DNA of 61,058 bases from Candidatus Anderseniibacteriota bacterium (GCA_052034485.1 JBPOIM010000020.1:1-61058), one strand, 5' to 3'. Positions 27,455 to 61,058 are shown, counted from the first letter of the stretch. Numbers and translations: made by a program. Notes: generated from the letters alone by a model not told the origin.

Positions 27455-27461
27455 AACCAGC

Positions 27462-29895: not shown

Positions 29896-29901
29896 ACGCC
29901 T

Positions 29902-30417
29902 ATGCAAGCAAGGACAAAAAAGGAATTTATCGTCGTTGCACTTGGAGGAATAATATTGTGTTCTATTGGATTATATAGTTCTCTTTATGCTCGATCCGTC
30001 GTACGTGACGATATTCGAAAACAAGATATAACAAACCTTAAGCGAGCAATAGAACAATATAATAATGCCCACGCTTTTTATCCCACCCCCCCTTCGGGTT
30101 CGTCGGAATGCTCAAAAAGTTCCCCTCAAGACTGGCTTTTAGGAGAAGACTCTTCTCTTCTAAAAGAGCATTTTATTGATGCTATTCCTCACGATACTCG
30201 GGAATCAAAAGGATTTGCATATATGTACTGTCCCACAGTAATAAGCAAAGGGCATACGACCGGCTTTTATTTACAGGCGCAGTTCGAATCAGATCAGGCG
30301 GAGGGAGTGTTTTTTGACGACGACGAACATAGAAAGTTTGGCTATCGAATACTTAATAACAATGATACAAAACTCTACCGTGTTTGCGGCGGAGACGATC
30401 ATCAATGTAATAAATAA
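29902..30417 (+). CDS. small membrane-anchored protein with type IV pilin / pseudopilin-like domain (degenerate signal)
   Basis: 171 aa. N-terminal hydrophobic helix FIVVALGGIILCSIGLY followed by ARSVVRDDIRKQDITNLKRAIEQYNN (pilin-like AR..RD..R..D...L..A.E.Y pattern). Four Cys in the C-terminal half. Lacks the G/FTLIE prepilin cleavage motif. Confidence 0.45.
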   Translation: MQARTKKEFIVVALGGIILCSIGLYSSLYARSVVRDDIRKQDITNLKRAIEQYNNAHAFYPTPPSGSSECSKSSPQDWLLGEDSSLLKEHFIDAIPHDTRESKGFAYMYCPTVISKGHTTGFYLQAQFESDQAEGVFFDDDEHRKFGYRILNNNDTKLYRVCGGDDHQCNK

Positions 30418-30423
30418 TATTCT

Positions 30424-31461: not shown

Positions 31462-31464
31462 TAT
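31459..31464 (+). promoter_or_regulatory. -10-like hexamer TAATAT at -12..-7 of ATG 31471
   Basis: tttTAATATttagatATG. Overlaps the stop codon of the upstream gene. Confidence 0.3.
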
Positions 31465-31470
31465 TTAGAT

Positions 31471-37243: not shown

Positions 37244-37288
37244 ATTGTTTGTAATGGTACTAGTAAATCAACGAACAGGTAAACATAA

Positions 37289-38719: not shown

Positions 38720-38723
38720 ATTG

Positions 38724-40604: not shown

Positions 40605-40610
40605 ACTGCA

Positions 40611-40619
40611 ACCATACCA
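40611..40619 (-). promoter_or_regulatory. extended -10 TGgTATGGT at -15..-7 of asnB ATG 40604 (minus strand)
   Basis: Reverse complement reads tttTGGTATGGTtgcagtATG. Confidence 0.45.
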
Positions 40620-40624
40620 AAAAC

Positions 40625-40633
40625 TGGTATACT
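40625..40633 (+). promoter_or_regulatory. extended -10 TGgTATACT at -15..-7 of ATG 40640
   Basis: aacTGGTATACTcgggaaATG. Back-to-back with 40611-40619 inside a 35-nt divergent spacer. Confidence 0.5.
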
Positions 40634-40639
40634 CGGGAA

Positions 40640-42889: not shown

Positions 42890-42892
42890 TAC

Positions 42893-46923: not shown

Positions 46924-46966
46924 ATCAATTAAGCCTAGCTGATCTAGTAAGAACTTTCAATTGGAG

Positions 46967-46972
46967 TATTAT
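46967..46972 (+). promoter_or_regulatory. -10 hexamer TATTAT at -12..-7 of ATG 46979
   Basis: ggagTATTATgcctatATG. Confidence 0.4.
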
Positions 46973-46978
46973 GCCTAT

Positions 46979-48325
46979 ATGCATCTCTATATTCGAAGGA
47001 CATTACTCGGTATTTCATATACTGCGTTTGTTATTATTGCGCCAATCGTCATTTTATACGCGGTAGGATATCGCCCACAAATATCCTCTCCAATTCCTCG
47101 GGCCGTAGGAGTAATCCTTGCAGACTCCAATCCCCCAAAAGCATCAATTATTATTAACGGAATTGACAAAGGCACTCTTCCGCGAGCAGTACCGAATATT
47201 GAACCAGGAATAACTTCTATTCAAGTAACAAAAGATGGGTATACGTCCTGGCAGAAATCTCTTGAAATCAAATCCGCAGAGGCAACAGATGTTCGATCCA
47301 TCGTTCTTCTTCCATCCTCATTCGACGAAACGAATGTAGTCGCGAACGCGCGAGCATTCTCCCTTTCTCCAAGCGGACTATTTATTGCAACAGCAAACAC
47401 TGACGGCAAACTTCACATTCAAGACATCGAGGGAGCCCCTATCAGCGCAAGCGGACAACTTTCAGGAAGTGCGAATCGAATTGAGTGGTCTCCAGACGGT
47501 ACGTACATCATCGTAGAGTCTGGAAAGCGAGTATATGACCTATTCCACTTCGACCACAACACGCTAGAAAAGGTATCAAGCAAAGCACTCGTGGGAGCAT
47601 CACACATAAGCTGGAGCCCAAGCACAGTTGGTAGCCTATACGGCCAAACACCCGAAGGAGATGTATTCCTTTACTCTATCACCACCGGAGCAAAGGAAGT
47701 AATTGTTAAGAAAGTGAACACATACGAAATAGCGAACAGAATGATCTACTACCAGACATTCCAAAATACTCTCTATGGGTCACCATTGCGCTCCATTGAA
47801 CCAAAAGTTCTCTCTCGGGATACCGGGAAACCACTTGAAAAGATTTCGCTTGGAAACAATGGCAATCTCATCCTGATAGCACACGATGGTCAACTACAAC
47901 TCTTGAAAAACCATGGGGAATTTAAAACCCTCTCCCCCTCCGTAATACATGCATCATGGTCTCCAGATGGCGAACTTATTCTCATTCAAACAGCACCAAC
48001 AGAACTGTATGTATACAATGTTGAAAACGAACGTTTTTTTGCAATTCCTCAAGGAGAGCTTCATTTAGTAACACGCCTATCGCAATCGATTACCAATCCA
48101 CAATGGTTTTCAGATAGTGAACATATTTTCTACCAACTAAATGGCTCGCTCATGTTCTCAGAAGTAGATACCAGAGACCACGCAATTGCGACGCCAATAA
48201 AATCTCTCCCAATACTTGGAAATGTTGCAATCGGAGGAAGCGCAAAAAGTATCTTCTCCATACAGCAAGAAGGAAAGACATCAAATCTCATTCAAACATT
48301 CCTCCAGACAAAAGAGGATAGATAA
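46979..48325 (+). CDS. membrane-anchored PEGA-domain / beta-propeller (TolB-like WD40) protein
   Basis: The ORF-track start 46961 is a TTG; ATG 46979 lies 6 nt downstream of TATTAT. N-terminal TM helix. PEGA-like ASIIINGIDKGTLPRAVPNIEPGITSIQVTKDGYTSW. Repeated WSPDG-type blades (EWSPDGTYI, SWSPSTVG, SWSPDGELI). Confidence 0.6.
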   Translation: MHLYIRRTLLGISYTAFVIIAPIVILYAVGYRPQISSPIPRAVGVILADSNPPKASIIINGIDKGTLPRAVPNIEPGITSIQVTKDGYTSWQKSLEIKSAEATDVRSIVLLPSSFDETNVVANARAFSLSPSGLFIATANTDGKLHIQDIEGAPISASGQLSGSANRIEWSPDGTYIIVESGKRVYDLFHFDHNTLEKVSSKALVGASHISWSPSTVGSLYGQTPEGDVFLYSITTGAKEVIVKKVNTYEIANRMIYYQTFQNTLYGSPLRSIEPKVLSRDTGKPLEKISLGNNGNLILIAHDGQLQLLKNHGEFKTLSPSVIHASWSPDGELILIQTAPTELYVYNVENERFFAIPQGELHLVTRLSQSITNPQWFSDSEHIFYQLNGSLMFSEVDTRDHAIATPIKSLPILGNVAIGGSAKSIFSIQQEGKTSNLIQTFLQTKEDR

Positions 48326-48753: not shown

Positions 48754-49749
48754 CTACCAGTACTTTTCCTTGTTTTCCTTATAGTACGCGACCATCCTCT
48801 TAATGCCCTCCTGGAGAGGCACAGAGGGCTTCCAGGACGTTATACTCTGAATTTTCGTAGTATCCGCAACATAGTTGCCGGTCTCATTTTTTTCATAATC
48901 CTCTGGCCAAGGAATGTGAGCCTTTGTACCAGATCCAACTTCCTTCAAAATGGCATCTACCATGGACACGAACGTAATCCGTTCGTGTGTCCCAATGTTA
49001 TATACTTCACCCTTTTCTCCATGAAGCGTTAGCTCGATAAAAGCATCAACAATATCATCGATGTATAAATAATCACGCTCTTGCTCCCCATCCCCAAACA
49101 CCGTGATAGTTTTGTTTTCCATTGCCTGACGAATAAACCAGCCAACTATAGAATACTTTCCGTGCTTCATTTGCTGCCCAGGTCCATATGGATTTGGAAT
49201 ACGAATAGAAATCGTATCAATACCAAACGTGTGCGTATAGTACTTGTAATACTTTTCTGCGAGTAACTTATGAATGCCGTACAGCGATAGGGGTTCAGTT
49301 GGATGACTTTCCGAAACAGGAACTGTGAGAATTTTCCCATATACCATACGAGATGAGGAAAAGAGTATCTTTGCAGCAGGTGCATGCTTTCGAACTGCCT
49401 CAAGTACCGTAAGGTGCCCCTTCCCGTTAAACTCCAGGTCCAAGAAAGGATCGTCTTTAGAATCAAGGTAGCTTACCTGCGCCGCAAAGTTATAAATAAT
49501 ATCCTTGCCTGCAACAATCGTATCCATAAGCTCCTGATCCCGAATATCCCCTTCAATAAACTGAATCTTGTCTCGTATTGGCTCAAGATTAAATGCATTC
49601 CCTCCATACAATACAAACATAGCATCAAGAACCGTTACCTCCGCACCAAGCTCGACAAGCTTTCGGGCAAGATTACTCCCAAGGAACCCTGCTCCTCCGG
49701 TAATCAGAACCTTCTTCCCTGCAAAAAATGTTTTGCTATCTTTTTTCAT
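48754..49749 (-). CDS. NAD-dependent epimerase/dehydratase-family SDR
   Basis: 331 aa. VLITGGAGFLGSNLARKLV, SSSRMVYG and YGIHK (YxxxK). No TDE triad, so not called rmlB. Confidence 0.75.
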   Translation of the reverse strand: MKKDSKTFFAGKKVLITGGAGFLGSNLARKLVELGAEVTVLDAMFVLYGGNAFNLEPIRDKIQFIEGDIRDQELMDTIVAGKDIIYNFAAQVSYLDSKDDPFLDLEFNGKGHLTVLEAVRKHAPAAKILFSSSRMVYGKILTVPVSESHPTEPLSLYGIHKLLAEKYYKYYTHTFGIDTISIRIPNPYGPGQQMKHGKYSIVGWFIRQAMENKTITVFGDGEQERDYLYIDDIVDAFIELTLHGEKGEVYNIGTHERITFVSMVDAILKEVGSGTKAHIPWPEDYEKNETGNYVADTTKIQSITSWKPSVPLQEGIKRMVAYYKENKEKYW

Positions 49750-50878
49750 GAGCTTTTATGAGCTTATCATATCGATCCATAATATTCTTCCAGTCGTACT
49801 CCAACGCGTATTCACGGCTCTTGTGCCCCATAGAAGTTCTCAACGCTTCATCATTAATAAGTTTCACCATTCGGTCAGCAAGAATATTTACGTCATCACC
49901 CAAAATCAAATATCCGTTTTCTCCTTCATGCACAATTTCATTATTTCCACCCACGTTGCTCGCAATAATAGGAAGCCCAGCACCCATTGCTTCCAAAATA
50001 ACAGAGGGCATACCTTCCGAAAGCGAAGTGAGTACAAAAATATCTGCGTACTGGTACGACTTTTCTAGCTGATCATACGGGACCATTCCAACATACGATA
50101 TTAAATCACTCACATGAAGCTCTTCGGCAAGCGCATCAAGTTCAGCGCGGTGTGCCCCCGTGCCAACAACCTCAACTTCAAACGGAACTTGTACCTTTTC
50201 TCGAACCAATGGCAACGCGCGAACCACACGATGGAATCCTTTTCGAGGAATAAGTCTTCCAATAAAGAGAATTTTCACTTTTGGATTCTTCGGTCGGTCA
50301 ATGGGGCGAAATCGATCCGTCTCTACACCATTCGGAATAGTATAGAACTCTGAATGCGGATCTGCCTGCATTGCAAGCCTCTGAAGATCATCTGAACAGA
50401 CAGATCGGAATGACGCTTTTCTCCAAATAGCTTTGAGCAACGGTGTAATAAATGGGTAAATTTTCGTAAAACGTGAAGGATTTGCATTTGGAATATCCGA
50501 CCCACCAAAATACACTCCGTAAGGAATTCCTTTTATAAAATAGAGAATCCATGCAACCCACCCTGCCGGTACCGCAAAAAACGCAAAGGTAAAATCAACC
50601 TTGTTCTTCAACGTAAAGAATAACGCGTACACAAGAGCTGAGACTCCAAAACTAATCAATTCAATAACAGAGCTATAGTCTTTGTATTTTCGAAGTGCAG
50701 GAATACGAATAACAGTAGCTCCATCAATCACTTCACGATGTGGCAGTTTTTTATATCGCGATGTAATAAGCGTTACCTTGTGCCCGGCTCGTACTAAGTA
50801 TCGAATTGCATATTTCGTAACGGTAGAACCGCCACCACCGATAGGGGGAAATTCATTGTTGATAAAGAGAAGGTTCAT
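49736..50878 (-). CDS. glycosyltransferase, GT4 family
   Basis: 380 aa. N-terminal NNEFPPIGGGGSTVT loop (as in ORF 3353..4504) and C-terminal LTSLSEGMPSVILEAMGAGLPIIASNVGGNNEIV. Confidence 0.85.
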   Translation of the reverse strand: MNLLFINNEFPPIGGGGSTVTKYAIRYLVRAGHKVTLITSRYKKLPHREVIDGATVIRIPALRKYKDYSSVIELISFGVSALVYALFFTLKNKVDFTFAFFAVPAGWVAWILYFIKGIPYGVYFGGSDIPNANPSRFTKIYPFITPLLKAIWRKASFRSVCSDDLQRLAMQADPHSEFYTIPNGVETDRFRPIDRPKNPKVKILFIGRLIPRKGFHRVVRALPLVREKVQVPFEVEVVGTGAHRAELDALAEELHVSDLISYVGMVPYDQLEKSYQYADIFVLTSLSEGMPSVILEAMGAGLPIIASNVGGNNEIVHEGENGYLILGDDVNILADRMVKLINDEALRTSMGHKSREYALEYDWKNIMDRYDKLIKAHEKR

Positions 50879-50887
50879 AGACCCTTT

Positions 50888-51823
50888 TTAAAAGCCCTTG
50901 GTATCTTTGATAGAGTAGGGTTTCTTTTCTGCGTAATACGTATGCGCCACAATGTCGGCAAGCACCCCAGAAAGCAGGAATTGGAACCCAAGCAATACAA
51001 GCAATACCGCAAGGAGAGGAGAGGACCTTCCCGACAATGCAATCAATCGGAACAGCCAGAGAATCCCGAGCGTTCCTCCGAGCAAAAACCCTGTGAGGAT
51101 AAATACCGCCCCAATAGCTCCGAAGAAATGCATCGGTCGTGCAGAATACTGAATCCAAAACTTTACAATCAATAAATCTAAAAATCCTTTCAGCTTTTTT
51201 CGAACATTATATTTTGTTGTACCAGTCGTACGAGGATGATGGCGAACAACCATCTCCCCAACGCGAAAACCTTTCCAAGAAAGTAGTGCGGTAATATATC
51301 GGTGCATTTCACCATACAGCTCTAGGTCTTCGAGTGCTTCTTTGCGATAAACCTTCAAACTGCACCCCTGATCATGAATCTTTTCACCTGTAACCTTTTT
51401 GCGAATCCAGTTTCCGATTTTACTTCCCAGCTTTAGCACGCTTTTATCCTGACGTTCTTTTCTCCAGCCAGATACAACATCAAGATCCTCGTCTCGTAAC
51501 TTTTGGATCATCGCAGGAATATCCTCTGGGTCATTTTGCAAATCAGCATCCATTACGATAACAACGTCTCCCGTTGCCGCAGAAAAACCTGCAGACCACC
51601 CCGCAGTTTGGCCAAAGCTCCTTCTAAATCGAATAACTTTTACATGGCTATCCGCCGAAGATAGTTCGGATAAAATACTATATGTAGAATCCGTACTACC
51701 ATCATCAACAACAATAAGCTCCCATGCTCCGTCCATTTTCTCAAAAACTCGCTTCGTAGCCTCGTAGAGAGCCTTAATTGACCCCTCTTCGTTGTGTGCT
51801 GGTACGACAATGCTATAGTCCAT
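50888..51823 (-). CDS. polyprenyl-phosphate glycosyltransferase, GtrB/ArnC-like GT2 with two C-terminal TM helices
   Basis: 311 aa. YSIVVPAHNEEGSI, LIVVDDGSTDST, RFRRSFGQTAG and VMDADLQNDPEDI. C-terminal helices FFGAIGAVFILTGFLLGGTLGILWL and LLAVLLVLLGFQFLLSGVLA. Confidence 0.8.
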   Translation of the reverse strand: MDYSIVVPAHNEEGSIKALYEATKRVFEKMDGAWELIVVDDGSTDSTYSILSELSSADSHVKVIRFRRSFGQTAGWSAGFSAATGDVVIVMDADLQNDPEDIPAMIQKLRDEDLDVVSGWRKERQDKSVLKLGSKIGNWIRKKVTGEKIHDQGCSLKVYRKEALEDLELYGEMHRYITALLSWKGFRVGEMVVRHHPRTTGTTKYNVRKKLKGFLDLLIVKFWIQYSARPMHFFGAIGAVFILTGFLLGGTLGILWLFRLIALSGRSSPLLAVLLVLLGFQFLLSGVLADIVAHTYYAEKKPYSIKDTKGF

Positions 51824-51829
51824 AGAGAA

Positions 51830-51858
51830 AAACTACACTAATATGTATAATTTGTCAA
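51830..51858 (-). promoter_or_regulatory. candidate promoter TTGACA - 17 nt - TAGTTT, with the -10 at -12..-7 of ATG 51823
   Basis: Reverse complement reads TTGACAaattatacatattagtgTAGTTTttctctATG. Lies in the 57-nt spacer between rmlA and the GtrB-like gene. Confidence 0.45.
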
Positions 51859-51880
51859 ATACCCTGAGCATGTCGAAGGG

Positions 51881-52759
51881 TCAATTCTCTTCAGCAACCT
51901 CAAGAAGGTACGATCCATACCCGCTTTTAAGGAGCCCTTGGGCAATTTCAACAAGCTGTTCCTTGGTAATATATCCCATCCTATACGCAACTTCCTCAAT
52001 ACAGCCGATCTTTAATCCCTGGCGCTGCTCCACAATCTGCACAAAGTTACTTGCCTGCAATAACGACGAGTGCAACCCCGCATCAAGCCAAGCAACTCCG
52101 CGAGGAAGCGCCGTAGCATACAAATTTCCCGCTTTCAGATAGGCATTGTGCAAATCAACCATTTCGAGCTCTCCTCGAGCAGACGGAGTGAGCTGTTTTG
52201 CGTACTCTACAACTTTGTTATCAAAAAAGTACAACCCCAAAATAGCATAAGGAGACTTTGGATGCTCTGGCTTCTCTTCAATCGAAATCACTTTTCCGTT
52301 TGCATCAAATTCAATAACCCCGGAACGCTCAGGGTCAGGAACATGGTATCCAAAAATCATATGTCCACCATCTGTTTCAATCTTCTTTCGTGCATCCTGT
52401 ACGATTCCAGAAAGGCCGCTTCCATATAGAATATTGTCACCTAACATCATGGCAACACTATCGTCTCCGATAAAATCTGCGCCAAGAATAAATGCTTCCG
52501 GTAATCCATTCGGCTTTTCTTGAACCTTGTATGTAAATTTCAGTCCTATACTCGAACCGTCCCCAAACAACGATTCAAATATCGGCAAATCTTTTGGAGT
52601 AGAGATAATCAAAAACTCACGGATACCCGAAAGCATCAGTGTAGAAATTGGGTAATAAATCATCGGCTTGTCATACACCGGAAGGAGCTGTTTGCTTACT
52701 GCTCGAGTAAGAGGGTAGAGCCTTGTACCCGAACCGCCTGCTAAAATAATGCCTTTCAT
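51881..52759 (-). CDS. rmlA: glucose-1-phosphate thymidylyltransferase
   Basis: 292 aa. [54 protein letters not shown], near-collinear with E. coli RmlA as I remember it. Confidence 0.9.
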
Positions 52760-52780
52760 AGATAGAAAAAGTATAATCCG

Positions 52781-53767
52781 TTATGCCGATTCCCCCAAAT
52801 GAATATGAGGTGCCAAATAGTCCTGCACATATTCTCGTATCGCATCATCAAGAGAGTAATTTTTGGAAATATCAAAGCCAGCAGAAACCAACTTTGACAC
52901 ATTTGCCTGCGTAAAGTACTGATACTGCTCCTTAAGCCCATCAGGCATATCGATAAATTCAATTTTTTCTGGCTTATCGGCGGCAGCAAACAATGCCCGA
53001 GCAACATCAAGCCAACTTCGCGCAATACCCGTACCAACGTTATATATTCCATTTGCTTCCGGAGTATCCAGAAAAAAGAGTGTGGCTCGAACGGCATCCT
53101 TCACGTAAATGAAGTCGCGCTGCTGTTCTCCGTCACCATATTTATCTTTATATGATTTAAATAATGTAATTGGCTTTCCCTCTGCAACGTCAGGATATTT
53201 AAGCGCTATCACACTCTTCATTGTTCCTTTATGCCATTCGTTTGGACCAAATACGTTAAAATAGCGAAGCCCCACAACAGAATCAAGATACCCACCATCG
53301 CGCGCCCATATGTCTACATCCAGCTTAGATTTTCCGTATAGGTTTAATGGCTCAAGGTCGTTAAAGAGTGCATGATCGTCTTTGTACCCATTACTACCGT
53401 CACCATACGTTGCAGCACTCGATGCGTATACGCAGCGTACACCCCTGTCTGCACACCAACGAATAATATCTTTGCTATATTCAACGTTATTATCGAGTAA
53501 GTAATCCCAGTTTTTTTCTGTCGTTGAGCTACATGCCCCCAAGTGAATAATCGCCTCTATACCCTCGCCATCAAGCTCACCTGCAAGTAATTGTTCTCGA
53601 AAATCAGCAATACCAATAAGTTGATCATGGCGCAAATGGCCAACATTGTGTTCCTTCTCGTCATCGTCTATCTCATCAACAATAATAATATCTTCCCTTC
53701 CTCGCGCATTGAGCGCCCACACTACCGCGCTTCCAATAAATCCTGCTCCACCCGTTACAACAATCAT
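52781..53767 (-). CDS. hldD: ADP-L-glycero-D-manno-heptose 6-epimerase
   Basis: 328 aa. MIVVTGGAGFIGSAVVWALN and IIHLGACSSTTEKNWDYLLDNNVEYSKDIIRWC...VYASSAATYG, matching the RfaD/HldD pattern. Confidence 0.85.
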   Translation of the reverse strand: MIVVTGGAGFIGSAVVWALNARGREDIIIVDEIDDDEKEHNVGHLRHDQLIGIADFREQLLAGELDGEGIEAIIHLGACSSTTEKNWDYLLDNNVEYSKDIIRWCADRGVRCVYASSAATYGDGSNGYKDDHALFNDLEPLNLYGKSKLDVDIWARDGGYLDSVVGLRYFNVFGPNEWHKGTMKSVIALKYPDVAEGKPITLFKSYKDKYGDGEQQRDFIYVKDAVRATLFFLDTPEANGIYNVGTGIARSWLDVARALFAAADKPEKIEFIDMPDGLKEQYQYFTQANVSKLVSAGFDISKNYSLDDAIREYVQDYLAPHIHLGESA

Positions 53768-54267
53768 AATGATTTAATTTTTTCAATAATTTCACTGGTT
53801 GATAAATTAGGACGCCGCGCAACGGTATATCCCACAACTCCTAGTTGCTGCATCATCGGATACTCTACCCACGATTCTTCAGAACCATGGTCTGAACCAT
53901 TTACATGAACATTCGGACGTATTGCAGGAAGAAACGACCCATGCGGTTCTTCGGAATACATCCCCTCGATAATTACCACATAATCCACGCACACAAGCGC
54001 AGCCAAAAGAGCCGCACGCTCCGCCTGAGGAATGATTGGCCGAGTTGGACCCTTACCAGAACGCACAGACTCATCGGAATTAAGTCCTATAAATAACACG
54101 TCGCCTTGCTTTTTTGCTTCTTCTAGAAAATCCAAATGCCCAGCCTGTAGCAAGTCAAACGAGCCATTTGCAGTAACAATTTTCTTCCCCTGAGAGCGAA
54201 GCTCTTCCGCCTTTTGAGAAGCTTGTTCTAGCGTCAATATTTTTTCAGTTCGCCACAGGTGTTCCAT
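53764..54267 (-). CDS. hldC: D-beta-D-heptose 1-phosphate adenylyltransferase (RfaE domain II type, stand-alone)
   Basis: 167 aa. VTANGSFDLLQAGHLDFLEEAKKQGDVLFIGLNSDESVRSGKGPTRPI (cytidylyltransferase-fold HxGH-like motif). 4-nt overlap with hldD. Confidence 0.8.
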   Translation of the reverse strand: MEHLWRTEKILTLEQASQKAEELRSQGKKIVTANGSFDLLQAGHLDFLEEAKKQGDVLFIGLNSDESVRSGKGPTRPIIPQAERAALLAALVCVDYVVIIEGMYSEEPHGSFLPAIRPNVHVNGSDHGSEESWVEYPMMQQLGVVGYTVARRPNLSTSEIIEKIKSL

Positions 54268-54307
54268 ATTATGTATGTGTACTATATACCGTACAACAAA
54301 AAAAGGG

Positions 54308-56563
54308 CTACCTTCCAGGAAGGCCCCTCATGTCTACTACGATATCATTGCCAGACACCTTGGGTTCCTCCTCCACAAAATAGAGCTTCTGAAAGGAAAC
54401 AGGAGTAAACAAATGAAATAAGTTTGTTGTAACCGTCCCTCGTATATCGTGAGGAACTCCAACAATATATACATCACCAACAGATGTTTTCCCGTGCGCC
54501 GCTTCTTGAAAACGTATTACGGCTGTTTGAGTAACATTGCTTACATCACGATACGCCTGAGAAAAGTCTGGGAGCCTCGTTACCCATAGCGCGTAACACA
54601 ATCCAACTGCTACAATCGTATACTCGAATATTTGTCGCGCCTTCGGAGATTGCGCAACAAGATGCACGAACGACATACTAGTAAAGCCCACAAGCATAGC
54701 AGGCCCCCATACAGACAAGCTAAGCCAACGCAAATTCCATACATCGGGTATCAACAGTACTGGCATAAGCATAAGTACCCACCATGACCCCGCAAACAAC
54801 GTAATGGTACGGGCATGTACATTCTTTCTCCACAGCACCAACAGACCTATGTATATCGCAATGCATATAACCCCTGGGTAATATGGTCCCTCATCAACTT
54901 TTGCAAAAAATGACGCATATGCCCCTTCAATACCAGAAAAAATTGACTGAAGAGTACTATTTTTTACCCATAGCCACTTTTCTGCAGACCATGCGCTATA
55001 CACAATCGTATTTCTCGCAATAACATCAGGAGACACCCGAATAGAATATGAACTATCCTCAATGGGGTAATGCGGCAACGTTGGGTCATACACCGCTACG
55101 GTTCGAATAACAAAATATACCCCTACGCATACCGTCAGTATTGCAAAGGGAACTATGCGCGACATAATAAATTTCTTTTGGAATAATCGCTTTCGCGTAA
55201 ACAGTGCGTCCAAAAGAACTATCATCGGAAGAAGAAACACTGCGTTTTCTTTTGAGAATAGCGCGAGCACATATGCAATACCCACAGCCCAAAACCAAGT
55301 CTTTTTCGCAGTTGCAAGGTACACCGTATAGAACAAAATTGTTGCCAATATAAAGAATGCAGCAATAGTGTCTTCTGTTGTGCTCCACCAAAATGCACTA
55401 CTTACATGACTAGAATGAGCCACCCATAACACTGCAGCCAAAAAGCTCATTGCGTAGTTTCGGAGAAACAGCCAAGACAACAAGAATAACAAACTTGCGG
55501 TTGCGGCCAATACAAGAAGGGCAAAAAAGTGATACCAAAATGCCTGTATGCCAAATAGCATCCATATAGCCCACGGGAACATCGAAAATGATATTGGCCG
55601 ATAAAATATAATCGGAGTTACGTTTAAATTATATGGGTCCCTATATGCATGGTTTGTAAACCATAGCTGCAGAGGGTTGGAAGCGAGCGCTTCAATGCGC
55701 ATCAATTTAAAATGATCATCTTGCCAATGAAATAGCTGCGTTGCCGACGAATAAAACGCTGGCACAATACATAACAGCACAACAATCCATAAAGCACCCT
55801 GCTTCCAAGAAAACTGATCCCAAGTTTCTTTCCAAAACCTTTCACTATCAAGCTTCTCAGAAAATCGCCATCCAATGCCAAGGACAAGGGTCGCACATAC
55901 TGCAAGAATTATCCCAACCCATACGAGCGTATGCTGTGGATGATTCATCCATTGCCACACGAGCGCAAGTATCGTTGGCCGCTCATACACAACAACCCCT
56001 AAGTCCCCCGGCCGTTCTTTGTTATTTATAACTAACGACCCCTCTTCTAAGTTTGTGCTATCGAGTTGGTATGAAAGATGAAGTGCCCTAGCAGAAGAAA
56101 GCCCTGGTGCCTCAAGCAAGAAATCAAGCTGCTTGCCCATTTTCTTAATAACTTCAAATTCAAAATACAATGTATCGTGATCAGGAAGCCCCTTAAGAAG
56201 TCTCGGATCGTATACATGGCTTGGCGCTTGCCCCCGTGCCAGATGCACACTTGAAGCGACTGTTCGTATATCACTGTCGCTTCCCGCTTCGCGAACATGC
56301 AGGATAAGCTCTTGATCAGGAGCAATACCCTTCGCCGTATCGTATGCAAACGCAATACCCGCAACATCCCCTCGGACAAGAAGACGCTGTCCAGCGACAG
56401 TACTACCAAATGTTTTTGTAAGATGTGTTCCGTCGGGAGAATTTACAGTAAGCGGCACCAAAAATGGCCGCTTATACCCTCCAGCAAAAAAAGATACTAC
56501 AAGCGCAAGCAGACAGATGGCAACACATACCGTGATAATCGTACTGCGTGCCCCCAACTTCAT
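54308..56563 (-). CDS. GT-C-like polytopic membrane protein with N-terminal extracytoplasmic module, embedded in the heptose operon
   Basis: 751 aa. TM1, a ~170-aa soluble module (VAGQRLLVRGDVAGIAFAYD...LILHVREAGS...LYFEFEVI...DFLLEAPG), then a polytopic core with FHWQDDHFKLMRIEALASN and ALFSKENAVFLLP. Confidence 0.6.
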   Translation of the reverse strand: MKLGARSTIITVCVAICLLALVVSFFAGGYKRPFLVPLTVNSPDGTHLTKTFGSTVAGQRLLVRGDVAGIAFAYDTAKGIAPDQELILHVREAGSDSDIRTVASSVHLARGQAPSHVYDPRLLKGLPDHDTLYFEFEVIKKMGKQLDFLLEAPGLSSARALHLSYQLDSTNLEEGSLVINNKERPGDLGVVVYERPTILALVWQWMNHPQHTLVWVGIILAVCATLVLGIGWRFSEKLDSERFWKETWDQFSWKQGALWIVVLLCIVPAFYSSATQLFHWQDDHFKLMRIEALASNPLQLWFTNHAYRDPYNLNVTPIIFYRPISFSMFPWAIWMLFGIQAFWYHFFALLVLAATASLLFLLSWLFLRNYAMSFLAAVLWVAHSSHVSSAFWWSTTEDTIAAFFILATILFYTVYLATAKKTWFWAVGIAYVLALFSKENAVFLLPMIVLLDALFTRKRLFQKKFIMSRIVPFAILTVCVGVYFVIRTVAVYDPTLPHYPIEDSSYSIRVSPDVIARNTIVYSAWSAEKWLWVKNSTLQSIFSGIEGAYASFFAKVDEGPYYPGVICIAIYIGLLVLWRKNVHARTITLFAGSWWVLMLMPVLLIPDVWNLRWLSLSVWGPAMLVGFTSMSFVHLVAQSPKARQIFEYTIVAVGLCYALWVTRLPDFSQAYRDVSNVTQTAVIRFQEAAHGKTSVGDVYIVGVPHDIRGTVTTNLFHLFTPVSFQKLYFVEEEPKVSGNDIVVDMRGLPGR

Positions 56564-56575
56564 ATCAAAATATCG

Positions 56576-57109
56576 TTATGGAACTATAATGCGAGCCGCC
56601 TCAAGTAAGGAACCGACTATAGCATCTGGCTGCTCAGAAAGATCTTCTTGTTTCCAATATTCACTTCGAATAAGCGCTGTTTTTGTACCGAGGTTTTTCC
56701 CAAATGCCATGTCAGCTTCTTTATCACCAACGGTCCAGCTATGCACATAATCAATTTCACCTAAGGTTTTTTCTATTTGTTTTGCCATTCCGATATCGGG
56801 CTTCCTACAATCACACGTATGCTGATCTCGCCCATGCGGACAAAACGCAATTGCATCAATATGGATACCCCTTTTCCATAATTCCTCATTCATAAACTGA
56901 TGCAGCGTATGCATTTGCTCCTCCGTATACAACCCGTGTGCAATACCGGACTGATTTGTCACAACAGCGAGCGCGTAACCTTCGCGCTGCAGAAGCTCAA
57001 GCGCATCTACTGCACCCTCTACCCACTCCCACGCATCAGCCTTATGCACGTACCCACGATCCACATTCAACGTGCCATCGCGATCTAAAAATACGACTCG
57101 CCTAGACAT
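56576..57109 (-). CDS. gmhB: D-glycero-D-manno-heptose 1,7-bisphosphate 7-phosphatase (HAD-IIIA)
   Basis: 177 aa. VVFLDRDGTLN (DxDGT nucleophile motif), VVTNQSGI, and CPHGRDQHTCDCRKP (zinc-binding Cys/His cluster typical of GmhB). Confidence 0.8.
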   Translation of the reverse strand: MSRRVVFLDRDGTLNVDRGYVHKADAWEWVEGAVDALELLQREGYALAVVTNQSGIAHGLYTEEQMHTLHQFMNEELWKRGIHIDAIAFCPHGRDQHTCDCRKPDIGMAKQIEKTLGEIDYVHSWTVGDKEADMAFGKNLGTKTALIRSEYWKQEDLSEQPDAIVGSLLEAARIIVP

Positions 57110-58103
57110 GATGCTCTTCTATGGTGTGCAGCAGCTCTTCTTGAGTAATGCCAACAGCACCTGTTTTTCGCGCTACGGTTGCCCCTGCAGCATTTCCAAT
57201 TTCCGCAGCCTCGGAAAGCGTCGCACCAGAGAGCATAGAAAGTAAAATAGCCACCGCAGCAGTATCTCCGCAGCCAGACGTATCAATCACCTCGTTATCT
57301 TTTATATACACAGTCGGAATATAATCTCCAGCTCCATTTTTATCTTGAACATACATACCTTCCCCGCCAAGCGTTAAGAAGGCGGTTGTATCAAAAGAGG
57401 TTGCAACCATAGCCGCTAACTCGTGCGCTTTCTTCCCACCGTTTTCATGCTGATTAATCCCAAGATATTCGTGTGCCTCTTTTCTATTCGGAGACATGTA
57501 CGTTGCTCCAGTAAAATATCCAACGCGAGAAGGTTTCGCATCTACCATCATTGGAATCTTTTTTTCTTTCATTGCCTCCATGAGCGCATGAGCAATAGCT
57601 TCAGAAACAGTTCCCTTCGCGTAGTCAGATACAATAATCGCATCTACAGAAGATGCTTGCTCTTTTAATTGTTCTAAGAGTTTTTCTTCCGCTTCATCCT
57701 GAATTTCCATTACATCCTCATAATCAACTCGCAAAAGTTGCTGACTTCCCACAATGTATCGCTTCTTAATAATGCTTCGCACGTGCTTATCGCGAATAAG
57801 CGTAGCGCTATATCCCTCTTTTTCTGCCGCACCCCCAATTGCATCCGCAATAGCATCATTTCCAACCAACCCAATACAAGAAGCCTGCGCACCTAACATA
57901 CTCGCGTTCTTTGCAGAGTTTCCAGCGCCACCCGTTGCGTCCTCTTCGCGCTTTGCATGCAAAATAGGCACCGGAGCTTCCGGATTTAATCGCTCAACAT
58001 TTCCGTATATATATCGATCTAAAAATATATCGCCAACAACGAGAATTTTTTTCTCACTAAACTGTTCCAATATTTCTTTTGCGCGCTGTGTTGAAATGCT
58101 CAT
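57102..58103 (-). CDS. hldA: D-beta-D-heptose 7-phosphate kinase (RfaE domain I type, PfkB fold, stand-alone)
   Basis: 333 aa. KILVVGDIFLDRYIYGNVERLNPEAPVPIL, ATGGAGNSAKN, and C-terminal DTSGCGDTA (PfkB motif). Confidence 0.8.
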   Translation of the reverse strand: MSISTQRAKEILEQFSEKKILVVGDIFLDRYIYGNVERLNPEAPVPILHAKREEDATGGAGNSAKNASMLGAQASCIGLVGNDAIADAIGGAAEKEGYSATLIRDKHVRSIIKKRYIVGSQQLLRVDYEDVMEIQDEAEEKLLEQLKEQASSVDAIIVSDYAKGTVSEAIAHALMEAMKEKKIPMMVDAKPSRVGYFTGATYMSPNRKEAHEYLGINQHENGGKKAHELAAMVATSFDTTAFLTLGGEGMYVQDKNGAGDYIPTVYIKDNEVIDTSGCGDTAAVAILLSMLSGATLSEAAEIGNAAGATVARKTGAVGITQEELLHTIEEHHV

Positions 58104-58675
58104 AGGGATGGTGTTCGTATTTCATCTTCAAACGATTCGCAAATTACATGAATAGCATGCAAATGCACTTCTTGCATTCGCTCGTTCTTATCAATTGGTA
58201 CTTCAATTGCAATATCTGCCAGCTCTCGAAGCTTTCCTGTTGTACCGGTAAGCGCAATCACCGTCATTCCATTTGCACGAGCAGCCTCAACAGCCTTTAA
58301 GATATTTTCAGAATTCCCACTTGTCGAAAGAGCAACAAATACATCCCCTGCTTTCCCAAGCCCTTCAACCTGCCGAGAAAACACTTCAGAAAATCCAAAA
58401 TCGTTTCCAATGCACGTAAGCGCCGTACCATCTGCCGTAAGCGCCAACATTGGGTATGGCTTTCGATTTTTTCGATACCGCCCAACAAGCTCTTCAGCAA
58501 AATGCTGTGCCTGGGAAGCACTTCCGCCATTCCCGGCAGTATACGCGCTGTAGCCTTTTCCAAATGCTTCATGCAAATGGTCTGCGGCTCTTGCTACTTG
58601 CTCATGAAACGTTGAGTCAAGCGAATCAAGAAGAGCTATAAGCTCTTTTGTATGTTTCTCGAATAATTGTTGCAT
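58100..58675 (-). CDS. gmhA: phosphoheptose (sedoheptulose-7-phosphate) isomerase
   Basis: 191 aa SIS domain. TAGNGGSASQAQHFAEELVGRY, TCIGNDFGFSEVFSRQV and ALSTSGNSENIL. Confidence 0.85.
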   Translation of the reverse strand: MQQLFEKHTKELIALLDSLDSTFHEQVARAADHLHEAFGKGYSAYTAGNGGSASQAQHFAEELVGRYRKNRKPYPMLALTADGTALTCIGNDFGFSEVFSRQVEGLGKAGDVFVALSTSGNSENILKAVEAARANGMTVIALTGTTGKLRELADIAIEVPIDKNERMQEVHLHAIHVICESFEDEIRTPSL

Positions 58676-58684
58676 ATGGGAACA

Positions 58685-59512
58685 TTATACACCTCTTACA
58701 AACGAAGCAAGCGCATCCTGCCATGGCCGCATCTTTGGCCCCTTGGTGTTTAACAAAATGCTATAGGTTGGCCGTTTTGCTGGGCGAGGAAATTCTTCCG
58801 ATGTAACCGGCTTCACACTTACCGCAAGGTTTGGAGTGTGTTCAAAAATCTTTTCCGCAAATTCAAACCAAGAAGCACTTCCGCTATTGGTACCGTGGTA
58901 AATTCCAAATGGATACTTCTCCTCAATAAGCTGCCGAACAAATAGGGAAAGGTCTTTCGTATACGTAGGGGAACCGTACTGGTCTTCAACCACTTGTAAG
59001 TTGCTATTCTTCTGCGCCAAGTCGAGCATGGTAGTAACAAAATTTCTTCCATTTGGGCCATACAGCCACGCAGTGCGTACCAGATAAAAGTTACATCCAC
59101 TCTCTTTCAGTGCGCGCTCTCCGGCTAATTTTGAAGCTCCGTAGGCATTTACGGCAGGGCCAGGAGAGTCTGCTTCTTTGTAGCCCTCTTTTTGCGTGCC
59201 AGGGAATACATAGTCAGTACTAAAATGCACAAGCGTTGCACCCAATTCATGCGCAACCGTTGCGAGGTTTTTGACTCCCGTTTCATTTACTAAGTACGCA
59301 TCTTCTGCATGCTCTTCTGCGCCATCCACATTTGTATACGCAGCAGCATTTATAACCAAGTCCGCAGCGGCTTCCCGAAGTACGGTGCGCACACTCTCGA
59401 TGTTTGTAATATCAATCTCCTCTTTGTCGATTGTAAGAGGATGGTAATCAGCAAATACTTGCGAAAGCATACTCCCCAACATGCCCTTCGCACCAACGAT
59501 CACAAGCTTCAT
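58685..59512 (-). CDS. rmlD: dTDP-4-dehydrorhamnose reductase
   Basis: 275 aa. MKLVIVGAKGMLGSML, INAAAYTNVDGAE, HFSTDYVF and NAYGASKLAGE. Confidence 0.85.
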   Translation of the reverse strand: MKLVIVGAKGMLGSMLSQVFADYHPLTIDKEEIDITNIESVRTVLREAAADLVINAAAYTNVDGAEEHAEDAYLVNETGVKNLATVAHELGATLVHFSTDYVFPGTQKEGYKEADSPGPAVNAYGASKLAGERALKESGCNFYLVRTAWLYGPNGRNFVTTMLDLAQKNSNLQVVEDQYGSPTYTKDLSLFVRQLIEEKYPFGIYHGTNSGSASWFEFAEKIFEHTPNLAVSVKPVTSEEFPRPAKRPTYSILLNTKGPKMRPWQDALASFVRGV

Positions 59513-59530: not shown

Positions 59531-59586
59531 ATAAAAAACAAAACAAAAAAAGAAAACCGACGAAGAATATTACTTCTTCGTCGGTT
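59531..59586 (-). terminator. rho-independent terminator downstream of the Nudix gene
   Basis: Perfect 13-bp stem AACCGACGAAGAA / TTCTTCGTCGGTT (59555-59567 / 59574-59586) with a 6-nt loop, followed on the minus strand by UUCUUUUUUUGUUUUGUUUUUU. Starts 23 nt after the stop. Confidence 0.8.
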
Positions 59587-59609
59587 CATAAAAGATCAAC
59601 TAACGCATC

Positions 59610-60461
59610 TCACCGAATCTCGTTCTGCTCGCAAAATCGTAGAAACTTTAGGAAAGCGTGTTCCGCTTTCCCGCTCGGATAATTACAATCCGAGTCAAAC
59701 GGATCAAGCGAATGTTCGCGATCATACCAACTTTCCACTTCCCCCAACGGCACACACGTGTAGTCAGTGATGCCCTCCTCAGAAGAACCTTCTTTTGGAA
59801 CTGGCTCACCAACACACAGCACTGCTGTCGCAGAGTGAAATTCCGGAATATTCCCTCCTTGGTATTCTCTGTTTTTTAGAATAGCCATGCGAGAAATTTC
59901 TCGCAATCCGCCAACCTCTTCATACAGCTCTCGCACACCGGCGATTTCCGCACTTTCTTCTCTTTCTCGAATTCCTCCAGCTGTCGTCCAATGAAAACAG
60001 TTGGGGACTCCGGGCCGATACATTTTCTGCATCACCAACTCAAGGTCACAGACCGAGACGCCTGCTTGGTTTAGACTTCGAAGATTCTTCAAAAAGTCTC
60101 CCCCAAGTCGAAGGTCGGCACACTTACTAAGATCTGCTTCAGCAATCCGAATGGGCAACGTAATTGAAGAAAATACCCCACTCGCCCGTACGAAGAAGTC
60201 CACCGGGTGCGGACAGTAAGAATCATCCCCTTGGATATGGCACTGATAGCCCGCGCTGACGATGCGCAAGCCACCGGGAGTCCTTCCTCGAAGCGCACCA
60301 ATCTGAGGCAAAAGCCCCAACAGAGTCTCCATATCTTGTTCATCCAGCCGCATGAGTAATGCGGGGGAGAGAAGCTTCGCGAGCTCCGCCCCATTTTCTG
60401 GCCGAGACAGTTCCTCCCAACGATCAACAACTTCCTGAACATTCGTCGTTACAGTGGGCAT
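59610..60461 (-). CDS. Nudix-box hydrolase with an unassigned ~150-aa N-terminal region
   Basis: 283 aa. Residues 163-185, GIREREESAEIAGVRELYEEVGG, fit Gx5Ex7REUxEExGU in 8 of 9 fixed positions (nt 59907-59975). GGAGG SD at 60471-60475, 9 nt from the ATG. Confidence 0.6.
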   Translation of the reverse strand: MPTVTTNVQEVVDRWEELSRPENGAELAKLLSPALLMRLDEQDMETLLGLLPQIGALRGRTPGGLRIVSAGYQCHIQGDDSYCPHPVDFFVRASGVFSSITLPIRIAEADLSKCADLRLGGDFLKNLRSLNQAGVSVCDLELVMQKMYRPGVPNCFHWTTAGGIREREESAEIAGVRELYEEVGGLREISRMAILKNREYQGGNIPEFHSATAVLCVGEPVPKEGSSEEGITDYTCVPLGEVESWYDREHSLDPFDSDCNYPSGKAEHAFLKFLRFCEQNEIR

Positions 60462-60518: not shown

Positions 60519-60548
60519 ATTATAGCACTAAAATGTGCTATTTGTCAA
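60519..60548 (-). promoter_or_regulatory. near-consensus sigma70 promoter of the Nudix gene: TTGACA - 18 nt - TATAAT
   Basis: Reverse complement reads TTGACAaatagcacattttagtgcTATAAT. The -35 lies in the last codons of rmlC. Followed by a ~50-nt leader with AAAGGAGGCG. Confidence 0.55.
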
Positions 60549-61058
60549 ATGTATTTGTTGCCTGTTCGAGTGTTGGGCTTGCAGCGTCTTTATCGGAAAG
60601 AATCGGGGTATTTGTTGGCCAGGTAATGCCAATGGTCGAATCGTTCCAAATAATTCCCCCTTCATGTTCTTTTGAGTACTCATCGCTGCAGTAGTACACA
60701 AATTCAGTATCGTCTTCTAATGCACAAAAGCCATGCGCAAATCCTTTTGGAATATACAACATGTTTTTCTGGTCTGCCGTAAGGGTTGCAGAAACCCACT
60801 TGCCATATGTTGGAGAATTTTTTCGAATATCTACCGCAACATCAAACGCACTTCCGCGAGTAACCTGTACCAACTTTGCCTGCGCCTTGGGAGGAAGCTG
60901 GTAGTGAAGTGCGCGGATCACATCTTTCTTACTTCGGGAATAATTAATCTGCACAAATTGTTCACCAATTCCCGCTGCAGCAAAATCAGAATACTTAAAC
61001 ACTTCTGCAAATGCGCCGCGGTCATCAGGAAACACGCTCGGTTGTACAAGAATTACTT
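60538..61058 (-). CDS. rmlC: dTDP-4-dehydrorhamnose 3,5-epimerase (N-terminus outside window)
   Basis: The frame stays open upstream of the ORF-track GTG at 61035 up to the window edge (..VILVQPSVFPDDRGAFAEVF, the RmlC N-terminal pattern). RALHYQ, RGSAFDVAVDIR, YIPKGFAHGF. Confidence 0.85.
   Translation of the reverse strand, partial: VILVQPSVFPDDRGAFAEVFKYSDFAAAGIGEQFVQINYSRSKKDVIRALHYQLPPKAQAKLVQVTRGSAFDVAVDIRKNSPTYGKWVSATLTADQKNMLYIPKGFAHGFCALEDDTEFVYYCSDEYSKEHEGGIIWNDSTIGITWPTNTPILSDKDAASPTLEQATNTFDK

Follow-up and report, generated by a model that had tools for sequence, protein, structure and literature searches.

ADP-L,D-heptose is classically the donor from which cytoplasmic GT9 enzymes build the inner core of lipopolysaccharide (LPS), and a full set of genes for its synthesis in a bacterium whose relatives are reported to lack LPS raises the question of where the sugar goes. 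Such a set was found in a 61,058-nt stretch of DNA from a Candidatus Anderseniibacteriota bacterium, the whole of which is referred to here as the window. It is part of a string of genes on the minus strand (48754-61058) in which heptose genes are interleaved with dTDP-rhamnose (rml) genes and followed by glycosyltransferase genes. Eleven genes follow one another in the order rmlD, gmhA, hldA, gmhB, a gene for a 751-aa protein with the GT-C glycosyltransferase fold, hldC, hldD, rmlA, a GT2 gene, a GT4 gene and a gene for a short-chain dehydrogenase/reductase (SDR); a Nudix gene and then rmlC lie upstream of rmlD in the same direction. Recomputed from the coordinates, the junctions comprise overlaps of 4, 8, 4 and 14 nt and gaps of 9, 12, 40, 21, 57 and 9 nt. 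A first-pass annotation had described the same eleven genes with this order, strand and set of junctions (overlaps of 4, 8, 4 and 14 nt, gaps of 9-57 nt), and its gene names agree with the Pfam and NCBIfam assignments. The explanation that we lean towards, with confidence somewhat better than even, is that the string is a conserved operon for the precursors of a cell-envelope glycan or glycoprotein in Andersenbacteria-like members of the candidate phyla radiation (CPR), with GT4- or GT2-type transfer of sugars in the cytoplasm and the GT-C as an accessory.

The heptose genes encode a coherent five-enzyme route from sedoheptulose-7-phosphate to ADP-L-glycero-beta-D-manno-heptose, made up of GmhA, a PfkB-type HldA, GmhB, a stand-alone HldC and HldD. 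The isomerase gene gmhA (58100..58675, minus strand, as are all genes of the string) scored 190 bits on TIGR00441, its best family, against a cutoff of 209, and also matches SIS_2. The heptose-7-phosphate kinase gene hldA (57102..58103) scored 278 bits on rfaE_dom_I (best family; cutoff 345), aligned over residues 12-328 of 333, and 114 bits on PfkB. For gmhB (56576..57109), the heptose 1,7-bisphosphate 7-phosphatase gene, the beta-anomer family NF006506 gave 180 bits against a cutoff of 178, and for hldD (52781..53767), the ADP-glyceromanno-heptose 6-epimerase gene, TIGR02197 gave 349 bits against 275. The heptose-1-phosphate adenylyltransferase gene hldC (53764..54267) scored 134 bits on rfaE_dom_II (best family; cutoff 181) and matches CTP_transf_like. 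GmhA, HldA and HldC are thus below the equivalog cutoffs, yet a heptose family is the top match of each and the alignments run from end to end. With that proviso for three of the enzymes, the family assignments bear out the earlier claim that all five steps are present, with kinase and adenylyltransferase encoded separately. It is the PfkB (RfaE domain I) type of kinase, and not the GHMP-type HddA, that marks the beta-anomer/ADP route, and HldA is of the PfkB type. According to a commentary (PMC11573728) that summarises Tang et al. 2024, the motif (F/L)XXGRSTT with Arg at position 5 (STTR5) is a hallmark of heptose nucleotidyltransferases that are promiscuous for the NTP. HldC reads RRPNLSTS at this site, with Leu at position 5, and does not have the STTR5 hallmark; ADP-heptose would remain the default product of HldC, though the motif is divergent overall. 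An ADP-heptose pathway has already been noted, at the pathway level, in CPR Paceibacteria (PMC9166423), and enzymes of NDP-heptose synthesis are widespread beyond LPS producers (PMC11461863).

The source of the DNA bears directly on the fate of the heptose. MreB from the window shares 84-90% identity with MreB of metagenome-assembled genomes (MAGs) that bear the label Candidatus Andersenbacteria or, wrongly, 'Saccharibacteria'; its identity to other Patescibacteria is about 60%. Orthologs of hldA (70-72% identical in four Andersenbacteria-like MAGs), hldC and the GT2 gene likewise point to Andersenbacteria-like Patescibacteria (CPR). Homologs of hldC form more than 120 clusters at >=56% identity among the matches listed, and the few clusters with organism names are from Andersenbacteria or Patescibacteria, plus one labelled Binatia. 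One Parcubacterium genome has been reported to be without lipid A/LPS genes (no lpxC, kdsA) yet to encode rmlA-D (PMC5220378). Patescibacteria have been reported without LPS, and a Gram-positive envelope is predicted for them (PMC9166423), so that GT9 and LPS genes are expected to be missing in this taxon. Among the scanned open reading frames (ORFs) of the window of at least 150 aa, no match was found to Glyco_transf_9 (PF01075) or to the Lpx and Kds families, which agrees with the earlier observation that the window has no GT9, lpx or Kdo (3-deoxy-D-manno-octulosonic acid) genes. The first-pass annotation had suggested that heptose goes into a non-LPS glycan, and the Patescibacterial source, the lack of LPS reported in the taxon and the absence of GT9, lpx and kds genes from the window all support it.

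Related loci were gathered by way of hldA, GT2 and HldC homologs, and the string is found again, complete or as overlapping segments, on some 14 related contigs (designated L plus a number; members of the GT-C family are designated P plus a number). The complete order rmlC-rmlD-gmhA-hldA-gmhB-hldC-hldD-rmlA-GT2-GT4-SDR is present in L086, where gmhB was not detected, and in L100, and overlapping parts of it are present in L083, L084, L085, L094, L095, L174, L176, L178, L179 and L180. As in the window, the operon is followed by a PEGA protein, murA and mreB in L086 and L094, and it is preceded by DUF4012, MurJ and LepA genes in L084, L086, L174 and L176. The operon therefore has defined housekeeping borders, with rmlB at neither of them. 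In L180, split transketolase genes (N- and C-terminal halves; 1490..3230) lie inside the operon, between an SDR gene and rmlD-gmhA-hldA-gmhB-hldC, and would feed sedoheptulose-7-phosphate straight into the heptose pathway. Between rmlC and rmlD, L083 carries two extra GmhB-like HAD phosphatase paralogs (36-37% identical to gmhB) and an inositol-monophosphatase-family gene (4676..5988 and 6083..6961).

Three of the four enzymes of dTDP-L-rhamnose synthesis are encoded in the string. The glucose-1-phosphate thymidylyltransferase gene rmlA (51881..52759) scored 432 bits on TIGR01207 (cutoff 361), the dTDP-4-dehydrorhamnose 3,5-epimerase gene rmlC (60538..61058) 215 bits on TIGR01221 (cutoff 156), and the dTDP-4-dehydrorhamnose reductase gene rmlD (58685..59512) 312 bits on TIGR01214 (cutoff 224). 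The 5' end of rmlC is cut by the end of the window and its ORF is still open at 61056, so the window by itself cannot reveal what is upstream of rmlC; the gene lies upstream behind the Nudix cassette, as first described, and its truncation is a correction to that description. The first-pass annotation had also called for RmlC and RmlD to be placed against rhamnose and heptose-modifying enzymes. This was done as a ranking of scores against PDB sequences, and both proteins fell on the rhamnose side: RmlC scored 145-181 bits to true RmlC and 61-74 bits to the Campylobacter GDP-heptose 3- and 3,5-epimerases, and RmlD scored up to 235 bits to true RmlD (3sc6), with no heptose reductase among its matches. 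On these grounds RmlA, RmlC and RmlD are true dTDP-rhamnose orthologs.

The fourth enzyme, RmlB, was sought in several ways. The motif [ST][TS]DE[VI][YF]G of RmlB-type 4,6-dehydratases is not found in any ORF of the window of at least 100 aa, as the first-pass annotation had noted, and the same holds across the operon loci of the clade. The four extended SDRs of the window have motifs of the SSSR, SSEE or SSSS type and scored 70-187 bits on TIGR01181 (cutoff 365). At the operon borders of relatives no rmlB was found, and LepA and MurJ lie upstream of rmlC there. SDRs of 315 and 318 aa beside rmlC or rmlD in L179 and L180 were considered as RmlB and rejected, as their motif is GSSSVYN and they are SDR321-like epimerases. 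It is common for rml genes to be scattered. When proteins were searched with the RmlB of a CPR contig, L066, all matches were Falkowbacteria-like (75-80% identity), which is silent on Andersenbacteria; this search, and the Parcubacterium genome with all four rml genes (PMC5220378), indicate that RmlB is abundant in Patescibacteria.

Downstream of rmlA, the GT2 gene (50888..51823), the GT4 gene (49736..50878) and the terminal SDR gene (48754..49749) are tightly packed, with a 9-nt gap and a 14-nt overlap, and form the best-conserved part of the locus (up to 84% identity). The GT2 protein matches Glycos_transf_2 (130 bits) and the NCBIfam families ArnC (175 bits, cutoff 529) and PgfS (150 bits, cutoff 500), and aligns over its full length with ArnC (9bhc, 161 bits, residues 3-297), GtrB (sll0501, 106 bits, residues 2-300) and archaeal dolichol-phosphate mannose synthase (DPMS; 69 bits). 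It has a DAD motif within VMDADLQND and two C-terminal hydrophobic transmembrane (TM) helices (hydrophobic stretch 230-294), and is a polyprenyl-phosphate glycosyltransferase of the ArnC/GtrB/PgfS type. Its equivalog scores are far under the cutoffs; it therefore belongs to a separate ortholog group, and its sugar specificity is not given by the sequence. Orthologs 82-84% identical are present in L086 and L094, and in every complete locus the GT2 gene comes directly after the precursor genes. Orthologs at >=70% identity were found only in this operon; as its genes are inherited together, this does not count as independent evidence. At 40-53% identity, homologs are spread over Bacteroidota, Acidobacteriota, Chloroflexota, Thermoplasmatota and others, archaea included, usually with no hld gene within 10 kb and often beside an SDR321-like epimerase or an AsnB-like gene. 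In the Bacteroidota loci L132, L142, L154, L155 and L158, GT2 homologs (42-45%) are followed by gmhA and gmhB within 1-5 kb; the order in Chitinophaga is GT2-GT4-gmhA-gmhB, and a DUF4199 gene precedes the GT2 homolog in L132 and L158, the two loci scanned. This adjacency was given little weight as an independent link between GT2 and heptose, as these loci are without hldA, hldC and hldD and have unrelated neighbours (SSF transporter, DUF4831).

The GT4 protein matches Glycos_transf_1 (137 bits) and Glyco_transf_4, and its PDB matches to BshA, MshA, PimB and PglA-like proteins (55-69 bits) are at the family level only. It is 69-80% identical in L086, L094, L095 and L100, and as a GT-B enzyme of a retaining family it is a candidate cytoplasmic heptosyl- or rhamnosyl-transferase. 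The terminal gene encodes an extended SDR with the motif SSSRMVYG/YGIHK, which is of the epimerase type, and the best solved relatives of this putative nucleotide-sugar epimerase are UDP-glucose 4-epimerase (4zrm, 156 bits) and CDP-tyvelose 2-epimerase (146 bits). By its motif and its TIGR01181 score (187 bits, cutoff 365) it is not a 4,6-dehydratase.

The locus is variable at the junction between gmhB and hldC. Fifteen gmhB/hldC junctions were sampled, the window included (L086 having no detectable gmhB there). The 751-aa GT-C is present at three of them, in the window, L082 (98% identity) and L001 (52%), and an unrelated 241-aa nucleotidyltransferase-like ORF is present at two (L176 and L177). 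The remaining ten are empty, including those of L178, which is the closest non-identical relative (HldC 81%), and L179, which is the closest to L001 in HldC. The 241-aa ORF (9198..9923 in L176 and 1488..2213 in L177) encodes a soluble protein without a Pfam match that reads like a minimal nucleotidyltransferase (GGLAIRYH...NDIDIVV). Since this unrelated ORF fills the same junction, the gmhB/hldC junction acts like a site of repeated insertion. In neighbour-joining trees of HldC and GmhB the window falls with the L083-L086 group and L001 with L100, and because the window and L001 are separated in this way the GT-C would have been either gained twice at one spot or lost many times. The 751-aa GT-C is an accessory insert in two lineages. 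The context of L001 differs in that a Nudix gene comes directly after hldC, and no copy of this GT-C subfamily (52-98% identity) was seen outside a heptose context.

The 751-aa protein (54308..56563) has no match in Pfam or NCBIfam. An exhaustive phmmer search gave about 30 full-length homologs, every one on a short Logan contig, and thousands of weaker matches confined to residues ~255-490; no relatives of the family were found in GTDB species representatives or JGI metagenome contigs. An alignment of 29 family members, too divergent to yield search patterns, has D282, D283, R289, R322, P323 and K438 as invariant residues, and D282-D283 sits just after a helix (253-270) as the acidic motif of the first extracytoplasmic loop. 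The AlphaFold (AF2) model (pLDDT 88.7, pTM 0.87) has an N-terminal TM helix, an outer jelly-roll beta-sandwich (~35-195), a polytopic helical core and a small C-terminal domain, with about 11-13 predicted helices in the protein and no TPR domain. All significant Foldseek matches of the core were GT-C proteins (STT3, PglB, EmbA/B/C, AftA, DPY19, Pmt4 and ArnT), with a probability of 1.0 and TM-scores of only 0.3-0.4. The weaker sequence relatives are TPR-containing PMT_2 proteins, and hhalign against this PMT_2/TPR family gave a probability of 100% (E=7e-43, 366 columns) with matching motifs; 11 of 30 family members match PMT_2. A profile search of PDB sequences with the family gave no meaningful match, and the placement is based on the fold comparison and hhalign. 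The protein is accordingly a genuine, divergent GT-C of the PMT_2/TMTC-like branch, and the GT-C label first given to the gene was a sound one. Characterised members of this branch use polyprenyl-phosphate-monosaccharide donors; the donor and acceptor of the 751-aa protein cannot be read from its sequence. The gene resembles its flanking genes in GC content and in GC content at third codon positions (GC3), is tightly spaced from them (12 and 40 nt), and shows no sign of foreign origin in these measures of composition. Distant family members (P0008-P0011, 32-34% identity) adjoin homologs of the window genes PMT476, YfhO947, GT2-PMT714 and SDR321, and not heptose genes.

Upstream of rmlD, the Nudix gene (59610..60461) encodes a 283-aa protein that matches PF00293 (E=2e-6) and contains a canonical Nudix box, GGIREREESAEIAGVRELYEEVGG. 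It is preceded by a sigma-70-like promoter sequence (60519..60548, minus strand), TTGACA-18-TATAAT with TG, in which 12/12 positions match the consensus, as a consensus match only. It is followed, in the gap before rmlD, by a hairpin resembling an intrinsic terminator (59554..59587, minus strand), with a 14-bp stem and a T-run. Its GC content is 0.508, and that of its neighbours about 0.44. Because of the promoter-like sequence, the terminator-like hairpin and the higher GC content, the Nudix gene is a putative self-contained cassette. As the strong hairpin (59587..59554) divides it from rmlD, transcription of the co-directional string probably starts anew at rmlD. The Nudix protein had no match in the PDB or NCBIfam, and an exact-sequence look-up gave no record. 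Nudix-box proteins are present in the operons of relatives, in L083 (3093..3929, 44%, and a second, divergent one at 7033..7776), in L174 (6150..6890) and in L001 after hldC (48%). This recurrence in the same operon suggests a nucleotide-sugar pyrophosphatase tied to the pathway.

Most of the 61-kb window is taken up by a glycosylation island, and the heptose string sits at its edge. Besides the GT-C gene of the string, the window has at least eight others, with PMT_2 or YfhO matches at 10877, 15377, 18990, 25310, 32396, 35228 and 37289 and a partial gene at 103. There are also three additional GtrB-like GT2 domains, at 10131, at 14581 and in a GT2-PMT_2 fusion at 25310. These GT-C genes and GT2 domains show that glycosylation by GT2 plus GT-C is a general strategy of this organism; small GtrB-like GT2 genes are paired with PMT_2 genes at 10131/10877 and 14581/15377. 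With so many GT-C genes in the window, a GT-C beside sugar-precursor genes is unremarkable here. The island also contains four more GT4 genes, five S-adenosylmethionine (SAM) methyltransferase genes and three more SDR genes. Across 1..44725 it is very dense, and further genes there encode a DegT aminotransferase (8947..10134), a sugar C-methyltransferase (13249..14577) and an AsnB-like amidotransferase (38724..40664). Eight ORFs of 171-803 aa, most of them large, have no Pfam match. One of the SDR genes (24282..25334, plus strand; motif SSEEYG) has as its best solved relatives Rmd (GDP-6-deoxy-D-lyxo-4-hexulose reductase, 2pk3, 227 bits) and then the Campylobacter GDP-D-glycero-D-manno-heptose 4,6-dehydratase (7us5, 195 bits), and could mean that enzymes elsewhere in the island make a 6-deoxy-hexose or 6-deoxy-heptose. 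The gene overlaps with the beginning of the GT2-PMT_2 fusion (25310..27454) and is 24 kb away from the heptose operon, to which no connection is drawn. Between the operon and murA-mreB lies a gene for a PEGA-domain and beta-propeller (WD40-like) protein (46961..48325, plus strand), whose position is kept in L086 (38%) and L094 (47%); the protein may be located at the surface or in the envelope and is a possible target of glycosylation. Scans of the window for Rfam families and tRNAs found nothing.

From the enzyme identities, the taxon and the synteny described above, we infer the donors, the acceptors and the heptosyltransferase as follows. In the envelope-precursor explanation that we favour, the operon would make ADP-L,D-heptose, and dTDP-L-rhamnose too, with RmlB encoded elsewhere in the genome. 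Heptose and rhamnose would be moved in the cytoplasm by non-GT9 enzymes of the GT-B or GT-A type, either the GT4 of the operon or GT4 and GT2 enzymes of the island, onto a lipid-linked or protein acceptor. The operon GT2 would load polyprenyl phosphate with a UDP-hexose or UDP-N-acetylhexosamine (UDP-HexNAc), the adjacent epimerase supplying the epimer, and the lipid-linked monosaccharide would be used outside the membrane by GT-C enzymes. The 751-aa GT-C would be a lineage-specific accessory enzyme, inserted at the variable junction and hence co-expressed with the heptose genes, and would most likely decorate the heptose- or rhamnose-containing product or a surface protein in a manner like GacI/GacL, Gtr or Pgf. 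The Nudix enzyme would probably trim the nucleotide-sugar pool. Several findings weigh against this explanation. No heptosyltransferase was identified in the string; GT4 enzymes are retaining, and we know of none that uses ADP-heptose. A GtrA/Wzx-type flippase or an ABC exporter was not found in the string either, and there is no unassigned free-standing ORF of at least 80 aa inside it. None of the 15 related operon loci contains a TDE-type rmlB. With gmhA, hldA and hldC under the NCBIfam equivalog cutoffs, their exact substrate or nucleotide is not proven, and the fact that one GT-C subfamily recurs at the same junction in two lineages that are not sisters hints that its tie to heptose is closer than an accessory decorator would have.

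That recurrence also bears on an alternative in which the GT-C is only a passenger, the junction being a permissive insertion site and the GT-C belonging to the neighbouring island, unrelated to heptose or rhamnose. We consider this unlikely, although it agrees with the lack of a GT-C at 12 of the 15 junctions, the 241-aa nucleotidyltransferase-like ORF at the same site in L176 and L177, the neighbourhoods of P0008-P0011, which hold homologs of window PMT476, YfhO947, GT2-PMT714 and SDR321, and the eight or more other GT-C genes in the window. It fits poorly with the presence of the same subfamily at the same junction in two separate lineages, a GC and GC3 composition indistinguishable from that of the flanks, the tight spacing of 12 and 40 nt, and the lack of any subfamily copy seen outside a heptose context. 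The first-pass annotation had gone the other way and suggested that heptose or rhamnose may be passed through a polyprenyl-phosphate intermediate to the outer face. In the heptose form of this route, the GT2 would charge polyprenyl phosphate from ADP-heptose or another NDP-heptose, and the 751-aa protein or another GT-C would transfer the heptose outside the membrane. The idea that the GT-C handles lipid-linked heptose is drawn from the position of its gene, and we regard it, and the route as a whole, as improbable. The part of the proposal that gained a little support is the association itself, as the gmhB-GT-C-hldC block is found in the window and L082 and again, with a GT-C 52% identical, in L001 despite differing neighbours; the window and L001 do not group as sisters in the trees of hldC and gmhB, and the nearest relatives of each are without the gene, which points to repeated gain or retention. 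The GT-C is moreover from a branch that uses polyprenyl-phosphate-monosaccharide donors, no GT9 gene is available in the window, the GT2 gene stands right after the precursor genes in every complete locus with its >=70% orthologs only in the operon, and a GT2 homolog lies 1-5 kb from gmhA-gmhB in five Bacteroidota loci. However, those Bacteroidota loci are without hldA, hldC and hldD, the GT2 family is ubiquitous, with homologs at 40-53% common in genomes and archaea without hld genes nearby, and downstream of the GT2 gene come the GT4 gene and that of an epimerase-type SDR, which could supply an ordinary UDP-sugar. The GT-C is optional, with 12 of the 15 junctions lacking it and the junction also taking the unrelated 241-aa gene, and its relatives at 32-34% are away from heptose genes. 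HldC does not have the STTR5 hallmark that would suggest UDP- or CDP-heptose. The structurally characterised relatives of the GT2 act on 4-deoxy-4-formamido-L-arabinose (Ara4FN; ArnC) and mannose (DPMS), and enzymes of the ArnC/DPMS type use UDP- or GDP-sugars, not ADP-sugars. A literature search on heptose, undecaprenyl phosphate and GT-C gave no precedent for the route.

The missing rmlB could also be explained if the Rml-like enzymes acted on the heptose nucleotide to give a 6-deoxy or epimerised heptose, another suggestion of the first-pass annotation, and the SDR at 24282..25334 that resembles Rmd and the GDP-heptose 4,6-dehydratase would be in keeping with it, as would the lack of a TDE-type RmlB in the window and in the 15 related loci. 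It was not supported, because RmlA, RmlC and RmlD are true dTDP-rhamnose orthologs: they pass the equivalog cutoffs, and RmlC and RmlD are far closer to true RmlC and RmlD structures than to the Campylobacter heptose enzymes. A route to heptose has no use for dTDP-glucose, the product of RmlA, RmlB is common among Patescibacteria, and the known 6-deoxyheptose pathways use GDP-alpha-heptose, not ADP-beta-heptose; we hold this explanation to be extremely improbable. Nor is it at all probable that the NDP-heptose is no glycan building block and is instead made for a small molecule of the septacidin or hygromycin kind, or released as a metabolite acting on a host or partner cell. Enzymes for NDP-heptose are found in many organisms without LPS, where their roles are not known (PMC11461863, PMC11573728), CPR bacteria are often episymbionts, and the recurrent Nudix gene could process a nucleotide sugar. 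Against this, the pathway is set among rml genes, followed by GT2-GT4-epimerase and placed within a 60-kb glycosylation island, no natural-product-type genes are present, and the operon has a well-conserved HldD, the enzyme that makes the L-glycero form, which serves as a glycosyl donor.

Comparison with known systems places the operon near several of them. It shares with the Gram-negative LPS inner-core pathway the same five enzyme families, including the PfkB-type kinase and HldD, and split heptose kinase and adenylyltransferase genes are already known in some proteobacteria. It differs in its CPR host, reported to be without outer membrane and LPS, in having no GT9, lpx or kds genes nearby, and in the interleaving of the heptose genes with rml genes, followed by an ArnC/GtrB-type GT2, a GT4 and an epimerase. 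With ArnC/ArnT, GtrA/GtrB/GtrC and the Pgf system of Streptococcus mutans (PgfS-PgfM1-PgfE-PgfM2) it has in common a full-length GT2 match, an adjacent epimerase like PgfE and a GT-C in the string; unlike these, its GT2 is far under the equivalog cutoffs, and no GtrA-type flippase was found and no ArnA, ArnB or ArnD is in the string. The 751-aa protein itself shares with the TPR-containing PMT_2 (TMTC-like) and PMT O-mannosyltransferases a (W/Q)DD in the first outer loop, YRP and LALLSKE, and its fold matches Pmt4, ArnT and STT3, but it is below the Pfam thresholds, has no C-terminal TPR, and has an extra N-terminal TM helix and an outer jelly-roll. The use of heptose outside the LPS core, monoderms included, has parallels in which GDP-D-glycero-alpha-D-manno-heptose serves the S-layer glycans of Gram-positive bacteria and the capsules of Campylobacter. 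Other non-LPS uses are protein heptosylation by AAH/TibC and the biosynthesis of septacidin and hygromycin (mentioned in PMC11461863). These systems use GT9-like enzymes with ADP-heptose, or GDP-alpha-heptose by way of HddA/HddC, in contrast to the ADP-beta route with no recognised heptosyltransferase of this locus. The streptococcal rhamnose polysaccharide clusters with GacI/GacJ/GacK/GacL resemble the operon in having an rml gene, a GT4, a GtrB-type GT2 and a GT-C in one monoderm locus, and in the Gac module the GtrB-type GT2 makes a polyprenyl-phosphate-monosaccharide from which the GT-C adds the sugar outside the membrane (bioRxiv 10.1101/180810; PMC9574508; PMC8035078). Unlike in those clusters, no ABC exporter, GacJ/GacK-like partners or polyrhamnose GT2 set was identified, heptose genes are present, and the GT-C is from the PMT_2/TMTC-like branch and is optional in the clade.

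What is new in this locus is the conserved operon architecture that joins heptose and rml genes to a polyprenyl-phosphate GT2/GT4/epimerase module, and the variable gmhB/hldC junction with a rare GT-C subfamily in it. Should the lipid-linked route prove true, a lipid-phosphate-linked donor of heptose and a heptosyltransferase of the GT-C type would each be the first of their kind, and GT-C glycobiology would gain a new donor class; if it is false, the locus is an ordinary, though taxonomically unusual, envelope-glycan cluster. The operon yields a small and concrete set of candidate non-GT9 heptosyltransferases, which is useful and not startling, and its predicted pathway would mean that monoderm ultra-small bacteria make NDP-heptose, which is an agonist of innate immunity.

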